This document shows, piece after piece, positions 43,667 to 48,352 of a stretch of DNA of 64,000 bases. Each line of letters begins with the position of its first letter. Positions within the stretch are counted from its first letter, which is position 1. Origin of the DNA: Tindallia sp. MSAO_Bac2 (lineage in GTDB: Bacteria > Bacillota > Clostridia > Peptostreptococcales > Tindalliaceae); contig QYZZ01000078.1 in NCBI GenBank assembly GCA_003838145.1, positions 25,587-89,586 of the forward strand, in the 5' to 3' direction. The position numbers and the translations under genes are program-made. The notes under the pieces were generated by a model. It was not told where the DNA came from. It saw only the letters and a list, made by a program, of their open reading frames with translations, and searched no databases.

Positions 43667-44635
43667 ATGAAACAACATAAGTTATTAAGTTTATTACTTG
43701 CATTACTACTTGCTCTGTCATTACTTGCTGGGTGTGGATCACCGGCAGACGAGCCAGCAGAAACAGAAGAACCAGCTGTAGAGGAAACTGTGGAAGAGCC
43801 GGCTGAAGAGCCTGAAGAAGAAGAAACGGAAGAACTGGATGAAGCGGCTGTTATATGGGATGCGACAACAGCGTATTTCGATTCCATTACCGAAGAAAAC
43901 AGTACTTGGAACATGGTGCCTTTTGCAGATGCACTGCCTATGATCGAAGACAATCCGGATGCAGTATTTATCGTTGATATGCGTGGCGCAGATGATTACG
44001 CAGAGGGTCATATCCCTGGAGCCGTTCACATCCCCTACGCAGAAATTGGAGAAAAGATGGACGTACTTCCTGCCAATCGTCAAATTATGGTTTATTGCTT
44101 TACCGGTCAAACCTCTGGCCAGGCCGTTGCAGCTATGCAGTTGATGGGCTTTAACGCAGTATCCCTGCAAGGTGGAATGAACTTTGGCTGGGCACCACTG
44201 GAGTTAGACGAAGACACCCTGGAAACAGAAGCAAATGAACTGCCTGAAGCAAACGCAGACTGGACTCCCGAACAGGAAATCCTGCTAGCTGCCATTAACG
44301 ATCATTTCACCCAGGGAACCAACCATATCGTTCGGCCGCCAGAAGTACATGACTTAATTGAAGGTAGTCCTGAAGCTATCCAAATTGTAGATATTCGTAA
44401 CCAGGAAGCTTATGATGAGGGTCATATAGAAGGTGCTGTATTGATTCCTTTCCCGGAAGTTGGAGAGCGTATGGATGAGTTTTCAACAACCAAGCCGGTT
44501 TATGTTACCTGCTTCTCAGGACAAACTGCCGGTCAAACCATCTTGAATCTTCGTCTCAACGGTATTAATGCAATGCCGATTTACCGAGGTATGAGAGGCT
44601 GGACTGGTGATGAAATGCCAGTAGTAACTGAATAA
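43667..44635 (+). CDS. Lipoprotein with two rhodanese domains
   Basis: Lipobox LLAGC, acidic linker, GHIPGA/GHIEGA, active-site loops CFTGQTS and CFSGQTA. Confidence 0.9.
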   Translation: MKQHKLLSLLLALLLALSLLAGCGSPADEPAETEEPAVEETVEEPAEEPEEEETEELDEAAVIWDATTAYFDSITEENSTWNMVPFADALPMIEDNPDAVFIVDMRGADDYAEGHIPGAVHIPYAEIGEKMDVLPANRQIMVYCFTGQTSGQAVAAMQLMGFNAVSLQGGMNFGWAPLELDEDTLETEANELPEANADWTPEQEILLAAINDHFTQGTNHIVRPPEVHDLIEGSPEAIQIVDIRNQEAYDEGHIEGAVLIPFPEVGERMDEFSTTKPVYVTCFSGQTAGQTILNLRLNGINAMPIYRGMRGWTGDEMPVVTE

Positions 44636-44750: not shown

Positions 44751-45821
44751 ATGGACAAAGAGCAGATTGTAGCAATCCTGGTCCTGGTAGTTTTGAGCGT
44801 AGGCATACTCTTTGGATGTAACGCCATTGGCGAGACTGATATGGCTGACGTGACCAGCTATGAAGTAACAGCGGAAGGCTACGGAGGACCTGTTCGTCTA
44901 CTGGTGCATGTAGATGGAGAAGAAATAGCAGATATTGAAGTACTGGAACAAAATGAAACCGAAGGACTGGGAGACACGGCAATCGAAGCTATGATCGCAA
45001 AAATTATTGAAAACCAGTCTGTGGATGTGGATGTGCACTCCGGTGCTACCGTTTCTTCCAAGGCAGTAATTGAAGCAGTAAAGAGTGCGCTGGAGGAAGC
45101 CGGTATATCTCTTGGAGATGCTGTAGCAGGAACGGATGAAGCCGATGAAGAATCAGCCCCGGTTGAATATGAAGCAGAAGGTACTTTGGCTATTGCATCC
45201 GGTTATGGTGGAGACGTTGTACTGGACGTCATCATGGACGGTGATGAAATAGTTGATATTAAGGTGCTGGATCAAAGCGAGACTCCAAATCTTGGAGATG
45301 TAGCCATTGATGCTATGATCGCAAAAATACTTAGTGCCCAGAGTCCGGATGTAGACGTGGAATCCGGAGCCACAGCTTCTTCAGAGGCTGTTATGAAAGC
45401 AGTAGCAGAAGCTACCGGACAAAACGTAGCAGAAAGGGAAGCGCCTGAAGATCCTGCGGCACAATATGACCTGGAAACTTATGAACCGGAAGGCATTATG
45501 GTATCGGGAAAAGGATTCCAGGATCGTTACGACATTTATTTGGATGTCATATTTGATGGAAATGAAATTACAGAAATTCGTGTCATCGAACATGGAGAAA
45601 CCAAAGGCTTTGGTGATGGTGCGCTTAGGGCTGTCCCTGAGAGAATTATTAACCAGCAAAGTGCTGAGGTAGATGTACAAACCGGTGCTACCTGGACATC
45701 AAATTCTACCATGGAACTGGTCCGACAGGCCGTTGAAGAAGCAGGAATTGAACTGACAGAACGTGAAGCTGCAGAAGCGGATGAGCCAGCTCCTGCTGCG
45801 GCACCCAGCGCTGGCGGCTGA
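44751..45821 (+). CDS. Membrane-anchored protein with three FMN-binding (flavinylation) domains
   Basis: Three repeats ending VHSGATVSS, VESGATASS, VQTGATWTS; GYGG and ET.GLG motifs. Confidence 0.9.
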   Translation: MDKEQIVAILVLVVLSVGILFGCNAIGETDMADVTSYEVTAEGYGGPVRLLVHVDGEEIADIEVLEQNETEGLGDTAIEAMIAKIIENQSVDVDVHSGATVSSKAVIEAVKSALEEAGISLGDAVAGTDEADEESAPVEYEAEGTLAIASGYGGDVVLDVIMDGDEIVDIKVLDQSETPNLGDVAIDAMIAKILSAQSPDVDVESGATASSEAVMKAVAEATGQNVAEREAPEDPAAQYDLETYEPEGIMVSGKGFQDRYDIYLDVIFDGNEITEIRVIEHGETKGFGDGALRAVPERIINQQSAEVDVQTGATWTSNSTMELVRQAVEEAGIELTEREAAEADEPAPAAAPSAGG

Positions 45822-45947
45822 GGTTAGTAAATTGATATCTGCGGGACGCAGATAAATTAAGTTGATTTATTTAGATATAAGATTTGACTCAGGATGTAAT
45901 ATATCCTTTAAGGAATCGAATATATTCTTGGAAAAAGGAGGACTATC

Positions 45948-46616
45948 ATGAACAAGGAAGCAAAAAACAACAGTGAAAACAAAAGCCTGAGCCGTAAAGA
46001 TTTTTTAAAGGGAATGGGAACCACTTTGGCAGGTGTTACGCTGTTTGGAGGAATGGGAACAGTCCTGGCCTCATTCAACGAAGCAGAAGCTGCGGAAAAG
46101 TCTGGCATGGAGCATCCGCTTCCCTATAAAAGAATCGATCCTGACAAAGCTGCCGAGAGAGCTTACAAATACTACAAAGAAAAAGGTGGCTGAGGCGTCG
46201 GTACAGCCGAAGGTCTTTTCGGCTACTTAGCAGCAGAAGCAGGATACCCCTACAACCAAATTCCAACGACCATGTACCGTTCCTTTGCAGGAGGCTTTGC
46301 GCTTGAAGCTTCTTTGTGTGGAACTCTGGCCGTTGCATCCGGTTTTATCGGATTATTTACAGTAGACAAGCAAAACCAACTTGTAAAAGAACTGTTTGAC
46401 TGGTACAAACAAGCAGAACTGCCTATATACAACCCGGACTTTCCTGACCATGCAGTAACGGTTGCAGAATCAACTATGTGCTATGACTCAGTTTCTAAGT
46501 TTATTCGGAAAGAAGACGTAGCGTTTCAGTCTCCTGAACGATCCAGTCGTTGCGCCGGGGTTGCCGCTGAAGTTGTGAGGACTACTGCAAAAATCCTTAA
46601 CCGTGAGTTTGCTTAA
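45948..46616 (+). CDS. Tat-signal C-GCAxxG-C-C family selenoprotein (split-Soret cytochrome-like), Sec82, 222 aa
   Basis: Track ORFs 45948-46193 and 46272-46616 share a frame; TGA 46191-46193 in KGG-U-GVGTAEG; open frame after; SLCG, TMCY, SRCAG; SRKDFLK signal. Confidence 0.85.
46205..46224 (+). promoter_or_regulatory. Putative bacterial SECIS hairpin
   Basis: AGCCGAAG-GTCT-TTTCGGCT starting 12 nt after TGA; G first in loop. Confidence 0.7.
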
Positions 46617-46649
46617 ATAATAATCGTTTTTAAAAATGAAGGTTAATAG

Positions 46650-46700
46650 AGAACCGCCCAAAACTATCGTTGAATTATAGAAGCTTTGGGCGGTTTTCTT
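46650..46700 (+). terminator. Intrinsic terminator
   Basis: AACCGCCCAAA/TTTGGGCGGTT followed by TTCTTT. Confidence 0.65.
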
Positions 46701-46774
46701 TGAAATACATAGTATGCGGAAAGAGAGTATTATATTCTAATGTTTGTTAATGATCAAAATGAGGGGATGAGTGG

Positions 46775-48352
46775 ATGGATAGCCGCATCCGTTTTCGGAA
46801 TTCGCTTCGGTTTAAAATAAGTTTAGTGTCCTTTGCGGTGGTGATCCTCATCATGGCTGTAATGTTATTCCGGTCCCACCGTGAAAGACTGGAACTGATT
46901 CGTATGCAGGAAGAGGTACTGAATGAACTTGCTGTATCCACCATAGATCGCCGGTTTAAAGTAAGCTATGAAATTCTGGAGACAGGACTGACTCAGGTGC
47001 TTGCAAATCCAGCCATCGCAGAAGCTTTTTACCAGAGAGACAGAGAAAGTCTTGAAAAACTTGTAATGCCATCCTTCGAAAGGCTTGAAGCAGTAGGCGT
47101 GTGTCGATTTCATTTTCATCTGCCTGATCAGACAACTTTTCTCAGGGTACATGACCCGGAAGATTACGGAGATGACCTTAGTACTTTCAGGGAAATAGTT
47201 GTCAGTATTAATGAAGATCCTCAGCGGAAGCCCATCAAAGGCATTGAAAAAGGAGAGGGAGGCACCTCTCTTCGTTATATATCGGCTGTGTATCACGGTG
47301 GGGAATACGCGGGGACGGTGGAACTGGGAATGTGCCTTGGGCCAAGAATCTTAGGCATTTTTCAAAATGTAAGTGGTGGGGACTGGTTTTTAATGCAGTT
47401 CAATGAATGGGGAGCCCGGAGAATTCATGGTACGGATTCATCCCCCTTTCCCATTAGCCTTAACGAAGAGCAACTTCTATATTTAGGCAATGGGCGGGTG
47501 TTGACAGAAACAGATCCGCCTTATGTTATTCAGCGGGTTCCTATAGCTGACTTTAAGGGTGATTATAATTACTACCTGAAAAGAATCTTCGACAACAGTG
47601 AACTGATTGGCCTGCAGCAACAGTACACAAGAGACAGTTTGATGTTTGGATTTTCCATGGCAATTGCCGGATCCATAGCTTTGTGGGCTCTTTTGCGCAG
47701 GCTATTGCAGCCGCTCCTATATCTGGAACAAAAAGTTAGACGCTTCGAGGCGGGAACCCTGGATGAAAGCATAGAAGTTACCTCAAAGGATGAAATAGCA
47801 TACCTGGCACGCGCTATGGAAAAAATGAGACAGTCAATTCATCGACGGGAAGAAAGGCTAAAGCGCATGAGCTTTCAGGATCAGTTAACGGGCATTCACA
47901 ATCGGCATTATTTTGATCAGATGATTAACGAAATGGAAGAAAAAAAGGTTTATCCTATTTCCATCATTATCGCGGATGTGGATAATCTGAAGTTTATTAA
48001 CGATAGGATTGGCCATGCGGAAGGCGACCGTCATATTGCTGACAGTGCAAAAGTACTGAAACGGGCAATGCGGCAGTCGGATTTGGTCTGCCGCATTGGT
48101 GGAGATGAATTTGCGGTTTTGCTTCCGGGCACCTGTGAAGAGGCTGTGATAAGGATCATAGAACGTATTCAGCAAGAGATTGACCTATATAATGAAGCAA
48201 TAGAAAATAATCACAGGAAAATGGAAATATCCCTGGGATTTGCAACCTGCTATGATGATAATGAATCTTTGGAAACCATGATGCAAACTGCAGATAAGAA
48301 CATGTACCGCAACAAAATGAAACGAAAAAAGGAAAAAGCGAGCAGTTTTTAA
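46775..48352 (+). CDS. Diguanylate cyclase (Cache-like sensor, HAMP, GGDEF)
   Basis: Two TM, HAMP, DQLTG, RQSD I-site, RIGGDEF. Confidence 0.92.
   Translation: MDSRIRFRNSLRFKISLVSFAVVILIMAVMLFRSHRERLELIRMQEEVLNELAVSTIDRRFKVSYEILETGLTQVLANPAIAEAFYQRDRESLEKLVMPSFERLEAVGVCRFHFHLPDQTTFLRVHDPEDYGDDLSTFREIVVSINEDPQRKPIKGIEKGEGGTSLRYISAVYHGGEYAGTVELGMCLGPRILGIFQNVSGGDWFLMQFNEWGARRIHGTDSSPFPISLNEEQLLYLGNGRVLTETDPPYVIQRVPIADFKGDYNYYLKRIFDNSELIGLQQQYTRDSLMFGFSMAIAGSIALWALLRRLLQPLLYLEQKVRRFEAGTLDESIEVTSKDEIAYLARAMEKMRQSIHRREERLKRMSFQDQLTGIHNRHYFDQMINEMEEKKVYPISIIIADVDNLKFINDRIGHAEGDRHIADSAKVLKRAMRQSDLVCRIGGDEFAVLLPGTCEEAVIRIIERIQQEIDLYNEAIENNHRKMEISLGFATCYDDNESLETMMQTADKNMYRNKMKRKKEKASSF

Follow-up and report, generated by a model that had tools for sequence, protein, structure and literature searches.

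A gene interrupted by UGA in Tindallia sp. MSAO_Bac2 probably encodes an exported selenoprotein related to the iron-centre domain of split-Soret cytochrome c

Two short open reading frames (ORFs) separated by a TGA codon can be two small genes or a single gene in which the UGA is read as selenocysteine (Sec), and the second possibility raises the further question of what selenium does in the protein. Both questions are posed by positions 45948-46616 of a stretch of 64,000 nucleotides from Tindallia sp. MSAO_Bac2 (GenBank assembly GCA_003838145.1, contig QYZZ01000078.1, positions 25,587 to 89,586), the whole of which is termed the window hereafter; all features given by window position are on the plus strand. 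We conclude that this locus is probably a single gene with a pre-protein of 222 residues as its product, namely a Sec-containing redox module with an iron centre, which is exported by the twin-arginine translocation (Tat) system and partnered with a flavin mononucleotide (FMN)-binding lipoprotein.

The ATG at 45948, the TGA at 46191-46193 (codon 82), and the TAA at 46614-46616 share one frame with no further stop. Judged from the match to PF09719 and the comparison of orthologues, the gene (45948-46616) comprises 222 codons including the UGA-Sec codon 82, plus the TAA. A ribosome-binding site, AGGAGG (45936-45941), can be read directly from the sequence 6 nt 5' of the ATG. Default ORF calling yields an ORF of 81 aa (45948-46193) and another of 114 aa from an internal ATG (46272-46616). 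A first-pass annotation, made from the letters of the window, had claimed that the frame stays open past the TGA up to 46616, that the TGA occupies the first conserved Cys position of a four-Cys family, and that a hairpin with a G-led loop begins 12 nt downstream. All three claims held: the TGA is the sole interruption of one 222-codon gene, the corresponding column is Cys in both the split-Soret cytochrome c structure (PDB 1H21) and the Cys-form homologues, and the stem and its loop, GUCU, were found in place.

The codon at 46191-46193 (U82 in the following) was compared across homologues. Among the 60 related genomes sampled, each of the 10 orthologues at 75-82% identity has exactly one in-frame TGA, as do most of the paralogues of ~50% identity. 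When 80 loci from named genomes were combined with the loci of the 60-genome sample by a script, 89 distinct proteins were obtained; the U82 column is TGA in 83 of them and Cys in the remaining 6. These homologues derive from soda-lake metagenome-assembled genomes (MAGs), Anoxynatronum, Alkaliphilus, Anaerovirgula, Tissierella, Sedimentibacter, Gudongella, Soehngenia, and others. Database homologues with 'GGWG' at the U82 site are full-length, the TGA codon being rendered as Trp by gene callers. Invariant and near-invariant columns occur both 5' and 3' of the UGA. Furthermore, residues 83-108, which span the TGA to the first downstream ATG (GVGTAEGLFGYLA..GYPYNQIP), are among the best-conserved stretches of the protein, and a separate downstream gene cannot account for this conservation.

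Bacterial Sec insertion sequence (SECIS) elements, as described in bSECISearch-type models, have an apical loop that begins with G and lies ~16-37 nt from the UGA. The hairpin at 46206-46223 has a 7-bp stem, GCCGAAG/UUUCGGC (46206-46212/46217-46223), and the loop GUCU (46213-46216). The stem starts 12 nt and the loop, with G first, 19 nt after the UGA, and RNAfold enlarges the structure to 46200-46227. The bacterial SECIS geometry noted in the first-pass annotation fits the description above, and the pairing is kept across homologues. Over 63 distinct sequences, 96.4% of the cells of the stem are paired and compensatory changes are found at three of the seven pairs (18 cells), for example GCC..GGC to UCC..GGA, GAA..UUC to GAG..CUC, and GCU..AGA with Gly replaced by Arg. 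None of 500 shuffles matched the observed pairing or covariation, and the pairing fell to 30-63% in controls in which the 3' arm was slid by 1-3 columns. All of the 77 distinct Sec forms retain 6-7 of the 7 pairs, while the six Cys forms retain 3-6. The third position of an Ala/Ser codon in the stem is C in 63 and T in 14 of the Sec forms, and never A or G; at an Ala codon that lies eight codons downstream and is not paired, the counts are A 54, G 9, T 12, and C 2. Comparable G-led hairpins follow the UGA in the FdhA gene and in a paralogous split-Soret gene of the same genome. No comparable hairpin was given by the minimum-energy fold downstream of the UGA in selD.

The genome carries selD, selA, selB, and tRNA-Sec (anticodon TCA) clustered on contig C34 (60107-64685), with scores exceeding the family cut-offs, and its selD itself contains a TGA. 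Elsewhere the TGA serves as an ordinary stop, for instance at the end of the upstream gene (45819-45821). None of the three conditions that the first-pass annotation had named as refuting it is borne out: the U82 column of homologues does have Cys or Sec (83 TGA and 6 Cys among the 89 proteins), all four machinery genes are found in the genome, and the strong conservation of residues 83-108 speaks against a product of 81 aa only. The homologue column, the covarying hairpin, and the complete machinery are three independent lines for reading the UGA as Sec. Thus, comparison of sequences leads us to regard the locus as almost certainly a genuine selenoprotein gene.

The read-through product matched PF09719 (C_GCAxxG_C_C) with 36.3 bits (cut-off 27), scored 20.2 bits against TIGR01909 (cut-off 47.4), and scored 123.7 bits against NF047622 (split-Soret cytochrome c), of which the equivalog cut-off is 400 bits. 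The four-Cys pattern of the family corresponds to U82, C124 in an LCG motif (LCGTLA; codon at 46317-46319), C178 (46479-46481), and C202 in an RCAG motif (46551-46553), the latter three of which are invariant in an alignment of 70 sequences. A sequence search of PDB retrieved 1H21 as the sole real match (E = 2.7e-23). In this alignment, U82 is matched by the Cys of 'KGfGCGFG', while three more Cys of 1H21 stand opposite C124, C178, and C202. An AlphaFold model, for which the 70-sequence alignment was used as the input, has pLDDT > 90 for residues ~55-222. When the model was compared with PDB by Foldseek, 1h21_A was the only significant match (E = 1.4e-11; root mean square deviation of 1.8 A over 170 columns; 34% identity). 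The PF09719 score and the matches to 1H21 in sequence and fold are in line with the earlier statement that the family includes split-Soret cytochrome-like proteins. No CxxCH motif is present in the 222-residue product, which stops where the di-heme tail of 1H21 starts. A heme protein was excluded by the absence of CxxCH together with the score far under the NF047622 cut-off. With CxxCH absent, it is the non-heme iron centre that matters as a cofactor; the protein has no heme and is homologous to the domain of split-Soret cytochrome c that houses this centre, and is therefore not a cytochrome.

Residues 1-48 (45948-46091) constitute a predicted signal peptide with a polar n-region, the motif S-R-K-D-F-L-K, an h-region rich in Gly and Thr, and A-E-A/A (residues 46-49) as the site for signal peptidase I. 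The first-pass annotation had given the motif as S-R-K-D-F-L-K and not RR, and residues 15-21 (S15-R-K-D-F-L-K21; 45990-46010) read exactly so. We regard this as a Tat-type motif from direct reading and from the signals of homologues: every position of the S/T-R-R-x-F-L-K consensus is present except the second Arg, which is replaced by Lys. The maximum Kyte-Doolittle value of the h-region is 1.66. The corresponding values are 1.06 and 1.47 for two RR substrates of the same genome, FdhA (SRRQFLK) and a molybdoenzyme (NRRNFLK), and 3.08 and 3.53 for the neighboring Sec-type lipoproteins. A single tatC and three tatA are encoded in the genome, on contig C121. Besides, tatC adjoins the gene in 18 homologous loci with several different gene orders, and is single-copy in 4 of the 5 relatives examined. 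Split-Soret cytochromes of other organisms are predicted Tat substrates (PMC4429474; PMC3623810). Altogether, the Tat-type signal, the weak h-region, the A-E-A site, the tatA and tatC genes, and the 18 loci with tatC make export of the protein, as was claimed in the first-pass annotation, very probable.

Among the signals of 80 homologues, those of Sec forms comprise 70 RK, 2 RR, and 2 RS, and those of Cys forms comprise 5 RR and 1 RK; by these signals RK is a trait of the clade. A strict functional coupling between Sec and RK was ruled out by the RK/Cys form (locus L041) and the RR/Sec forms (L108 and L125), the correlation tracking clades. RK as a genome-wide habit was ruled out as well, as FdhA and the molybdoenzyme of the same genome carry RR. 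A lipobox (L-T/S-G/A-C) was found in 74 of the 80 homologues, and none was found in the window protein and one close relative.

The gene directly 5' of the selenoprotein gene (44751-45821) encodes a lipoprotein with an LFGC lipobox and three FMN_bind domains, and its product is a probable partner. Each domain has one S/T-G-A-T motif of the type flavinylated by ApbE (SGAT, SGAT, and TGAT), the genome has an ApbE gene on contig C58, and the triple-FMN gene is directly upstream in the closest orthologues too. Further upstream (43667-44635) is a gene for a lipoprotein with an LAGC lipobox and two rhodanese domains, of which the active-site loops (CFTGQTS and CFSGQTA) have their Cys intact. This protein is a possible partner, albeit the link is weak as the rhodanese gene is conserved upstream in only 3 close orthologue loci. 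We surveyed 66 distinct loci for neighbors within 4.5 kb. At least one recurring neighbor (FMN_bind, tatC, YeeE/YedE, or ApbE) was found in 35 of them; the individual counts are 16 for an FMN_bind lipoprotein, 18 for tatC, 16 for a split YeeE/YedE sulfur-transporter pair, and 6 for ApbE, and a divergent LysR regulator occurs in 19 loci. This neighborhood suggests an extracytoplasmic, flavin-linked redox module with a connection to sulfur or selenium.

In a recurrent arrangement, of which L061, L066, and L093 (Alkaliphilus and Anaerovirgula) are examples, the order is tatC, the N-half and the C-half of yeeE/yedE, a divergent lysR, the Sec gene, and a gene for a small FMN_bind lipoprotein. This type of arrangement may be a regulated unit for the uptake or reduction of sulfur or selenium. 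On the 3' side of the selenoprotein gene in the window, an intrinsic terminator (46650-46702) consists of a GC-rich stem (AACCGCCCAAA/TTTGGGCGGTT) and a T-run (RNAfold, -25.8 kcal/mol). After the terminator, a gene at 46775-48352 encodes a membrane diguanylate cyclase of the dCache_3-HAMP-GGDEF type, and GGDEF matches were found near the selenoprotein gene in a few orthologue loci.

We propose the following course of events. By the comparison of homologues, the UGA at 46191-46193 is read as Sec, probably through SelB and Sec-tRNA(Sec) acting on the hairpin at 46206-46223, and translation goes on to the TAA ending at 46616. By sequence and structure model, the mature part (~residues 49-222) folds like the N-terminal domain of split-Soret cytochrome c, which houses the non-heme 'novel iron centre'. 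Folding and cofactor uptake would take place first in the cytoplasm, yielding a [2Fe-2S]-type centre with Sec82, Cys124, Cys178, and Cys202 as its ligands; export through TatAC and cleavage after A-E-A would follow, while most homologues would instead be lipid-anchored at the lipobox Cys. Outside the membrane, the protein would work as a small redox or electron-transfer module, in which selenium would be a ligand of the iron centre (the role we prefer) or the reactive atom, and would exchange electrons with the triple-FMN lipoprotein, covalently flavinylated and encoded just upstream. The rhodanese gene in the window and the YeeE/YedE transporters at homologous loci are the reasons for proposing sulfur or selenium compounds as possible substrates. 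In its most specific form, our proposal is a small Tat-exported protein, lipid-anchored in most species, with a Sec-ligated [2Fe-2S]-type centre that is the terminal module of an extracytoplasmic ApbE-flavin chain acting on sulfur or selenium compounds, with S/T-R-K-D-F-L-K as a natural single-arginine class of Tat signals often encoded next door to tatC. This combination as a whole is put forward tentatively.

Several observations speak against parts of this proposal. Regarding the hairpin, the single-sequence fold of 46185-46260 (76 nt) is no better than those of shuffled sequences (z = -0.88); as this z is uninformative, the comparative pair counts were used instead. Rfam, scanned permissively over 45000-47500 (E up to 10), gave no match to a SECIS or any other relevant family, and yielded chance miRNA and snoRNA matches only. 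In addition, the stem overlaps a conserved peptide, A-E-G-L/F-F-G, which in itself favors a palindromic sequence, and a pair of Cys forms (L106 and L107; SRRDFLK) retains 6 of the 7 pairs (GCCGAUG..GAUUGGC). The pairing in L106 and L107 may reflect a recent conversion of Sec to Cys, or may be imposed by the peptide sequence. Regarding export, the twin-arginine pair, which is the hallmark of Tat signals, is incomplete and standard predictors would reject the signal. Approximately half of the homologous loci, mostly of Sedimentibacter and Gudongella, lack the recurring neighbors. Finally, the four-Cys [2Fe-2S] ligation in 1H21 is taken from a reported assignment and from the PDB title, and 1H21 has a fifth, non-conserved Cys nearby.

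The last point bears on the role of selenium. The title of the PDB entry 1H21 describes a novel iron centre, and Abreu and colleagues reportedly assigned, in 2003, a [2Fe-2S] cluster to its four non-heme Cys. No details of the ligands of the iron centre were found among the papers mentioning split-Soret cytochromes in the literature searched. Because exactly four positions are conserved, and because of the entry title and the reported assignment, we infer that Sec82, Cys124, Cys178, and Cys202 ligate a [2Fe-2S]-type centre, and prefer this reading for the role of selenium. Alternatively, the selenoprotein may contain no metal centre, with Sec82 being a catalytic selenol that forms a selenenylsulfide with a conserved Cys, and may act as an extracytoplasmic thiol/selenol oxidoreductase on polysulfide, thiosulfate, selenite, or protein disulfides. 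Such a selenol is what one might expect from the bacterial Sec/Cys pairs, which mostly occur at redox-active Cys (PMC9312934; PMC13188914), from the Pfam label of the family ('putative redox-active protein'), and from the sulfur-related genes, i.e., the rhodanese gene upstream and the YeeE/YedE transporters at 16 homologous loci. However, the sole solved relative is titled as bearing a novel iron centre within that same domain, and the four Cys positions are conserved jointly. The Tat-type signal and the linkage to tatC would also be expected of a protein exported with its cofactor pre-inserted, whereas a simple thiol oxidoreductase normally takes the general secretory (Sec) pathway. We therefore consider the metal-free selenol a possible but less probable role than that of an iron ligand.

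The Sec pathway has to be weighed for the window protein as well. In this scenario, R-K-D-F-L-K would be a relic of a Tat-exported ancestor, and the cofactor would be absent or acquired extracellularly. The imperfect twin-arginine pair, the variation among RS, RT, RQ, and RK within the clade, and the lipoprotein nature of most homologues, a class usually exported by the Sec pathway, all suit this scenario. On the other hand, the S/T, F, L, and K positions of the consensus are retained in ~70 sequences, and the hydrophobicity of the h-region is like that of the RR substrates of the same genome and far under that of the adjacent Sec-type lipoproteins. Furthermore, the tatC genes adjacent in the 18 loci stand in differing gene orders, and in 4 of the 5 relatives the tatC concerned is the sole copy. 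Export by the Sec pathway thus appears rather unlikely to us and, as judged from signals and gene order, Tat is the likely route; we hold it as likely only, since the defining RR pair is incomplete.

The other two readings deny Sec altogether. If the TGA were a true stop, the locus would be a pseudogene, two small genes, or the product of a sequencing error, and no full-length protein would be made. The default ORF calls of 81 aa and 114 aa and the public annotation of relatives, mostly a C-terminal fragment of 128-139 aa, are what this reading predicts, but the same TGA column in 83 distinct homologues of many genera, the conservation of the protein on both sides, including the part before any downstream start codon, the covarying hairpin, and the complete Sec machinery make it very improbable. 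The comparative data rule out a pseudogene, a sequencing error, and an alternative code. Decoding of the UGA as Trp, Cys, or Gly through an alternative code or near-cognate suppression, which would match the TGA=W rendering of homologues by the gene callers of public collections, is the least probable of all, as TGA is a normal stop in the genome (e.g., in the upstream gene), the hairpin of SECIS geometry is position-specific and covaries, the Cys forms align Cys and never a TGG-encoded Trp, and selD, selA, selB, and tRNA-Sec are present along with classic selenoprotein genes, FdhA (U198) and SelD, showing the same pattern.

The same genome (G000) has a paralogue on contig C24 (338-1006, minus strand; L043), which, with both CxxCH motifs (CMACH and CTECH), is a split-Soret cytochrome c proper. 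In this paralogue, a TGA (Sec) again occupies the U82 column, the signal reads T-R-Q-Q-F-L-K (RQ rather than RR), the lipobox is LGGC, and the SECIS stem shows a further compensatory change, GAU..AUC. Tandem duplicates of the Sec gene, each copy with its own TGA and hairpin, were found in Gudongella and several MAGs (L037/L042, L068, L121, L124, L126, and L127), and the order tatC-gene-gene is repeated in L068.

Default gene calling breaks the gene, so that fragments or versions with TGA as Trp are deposited in public records. Consequently, a widespread extracytoplasmic selenoprotein of Peptostreptococcales/Tissierellales-type anaerobes, with conserved counterparts in ~80 related organisms, is largely invisible in databases. 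The interest of the protein lies mainly in the possibility that selenium ligates the iron centre of so small an exported protein, and in the clade-wide Arg-Lys signal of Tat type. Being small and likely tractable, the protein may serve to ask whether selenium can take the place of sulfur in ligating a [2Fe-2S]-type centre and how potential or reactivity would be affected. Whether an Arg-Lys Tat signal can serve an entire protein clade is another question that it raises. With flavinylated lipoproteins, ApbE, tatC, and YeeE/YedE recurring nearby, there may be a branch of flavin-based extracellular electron transfer, or of the handling of sulfur and selenium, that has yet to be described.

The selenoprotein family itself is already catalogued. 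The 'C-GCAxxG-C-C family protein' is listed as a predicted selenoprotein family in two reviews (PMC9312934; PMC13188914), one of which distinguishes 'form 1' and 'form 2'. The window protein shares with these selenoproteins the Pfam family, the four-Cys pattern, and Sec in place of a conserved Cys, and the NCBI product name of TIGR01909 is 'C-GCAxxG-C-C family (seleno)protein'. The RefSeq representative of 'form 2', which could not be traced through Zhang & Gladyshev 2008, is presumably from Alkaliphilus, a genus in which the clade studied here occurs, and may belong to this clade. The two reviews (PMC9312934; PMC13188914) present the family without function, Sec motif, signal peptide, lipobox, Tat, or gene context, and no paper in the literature searched ties it to Tat, lipoproteins, or flavinylation. 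Most of the named NCBI records of the clade lack the signal and Sec, being C-terminal fragments of 128-139 aa, and stand under the names 'C-GCAxxG-C-C family (seleno)protein', 'putative redox-active protein', and 'split-Soret cytochrome c precursor'. Many family entries in public protein collections (P0005-P0043 etc.; locus L129) are full-length solely via TGA-as-Trp ('GGWG'). The export signal, its RK variant, the relation to the iron centre of 1H21, and the gene neighborhood appear to be undescribed.

Another of the closest known systems, the split-Soret cytochrome c (1H21; NF047622) from Desulfovibrio desulfuricans ATCC 27774, shares with the window protein the N-terminal domain, the four aligned Cys positions, a Tat-type signal, and the extracytoplasmic location. 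It differs in possessing the di-heme tail (2 x CxxCH), in having Cys rather than Sec at the first position, and in carrying RR rather than RK. As for the combination of selenium and Tat, the periplasmic formate dehydrogenases FdnG/FdhA and [NiFeSe] hydrogenase are exported by Tat after loading of their cofactors in the cytoplasm, and their Sec is a metal ligand. Those enzymes are, however, large, contain molybdo/tungsto-pterin or Ni-Fe, and carry canonical RR signals, whereas the window protein has a mature part of ~174 residues, an unrelated fold, and an RK signal. The same genome encodes a periplasmic formate dehydrogenase alpha subunit, FdhA, on the minus strand of contig C105, with an SRRQFLK signal and a TGA at codon 198 (HCARLUHS), at which ORF calling stops after 197 aa.

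The putative partner resembles the PplA-type lipoproteins of Listeria, which take part in flavin-based extracellular electron transfer and are flavinylated by ApbE/FmnB: the upstream lipoprotein has several FMN_bind domains with S/T-G-A-T, and ApbE is encoded in the genome and at some homologous loci. We found no published link of PplA-type flavin lipoproteins to C-GCAxxG-C-C or split-Soret-type proteins in the literature searched, and we infer the partnership of the selenoprotein with the FMN lipoprotein from the gene neighborhood only. As for the signal, Salmonella TtrB has a natural Tat signal with K-R, in which one arginine is replaced. The window protein likewise has one 'invariant' Arg changed to Lys with the remaining motif kept, but in its case Lys takes the place of the second Arg (R-K), and the replacement is the norm of a whole clade rather than a single case.

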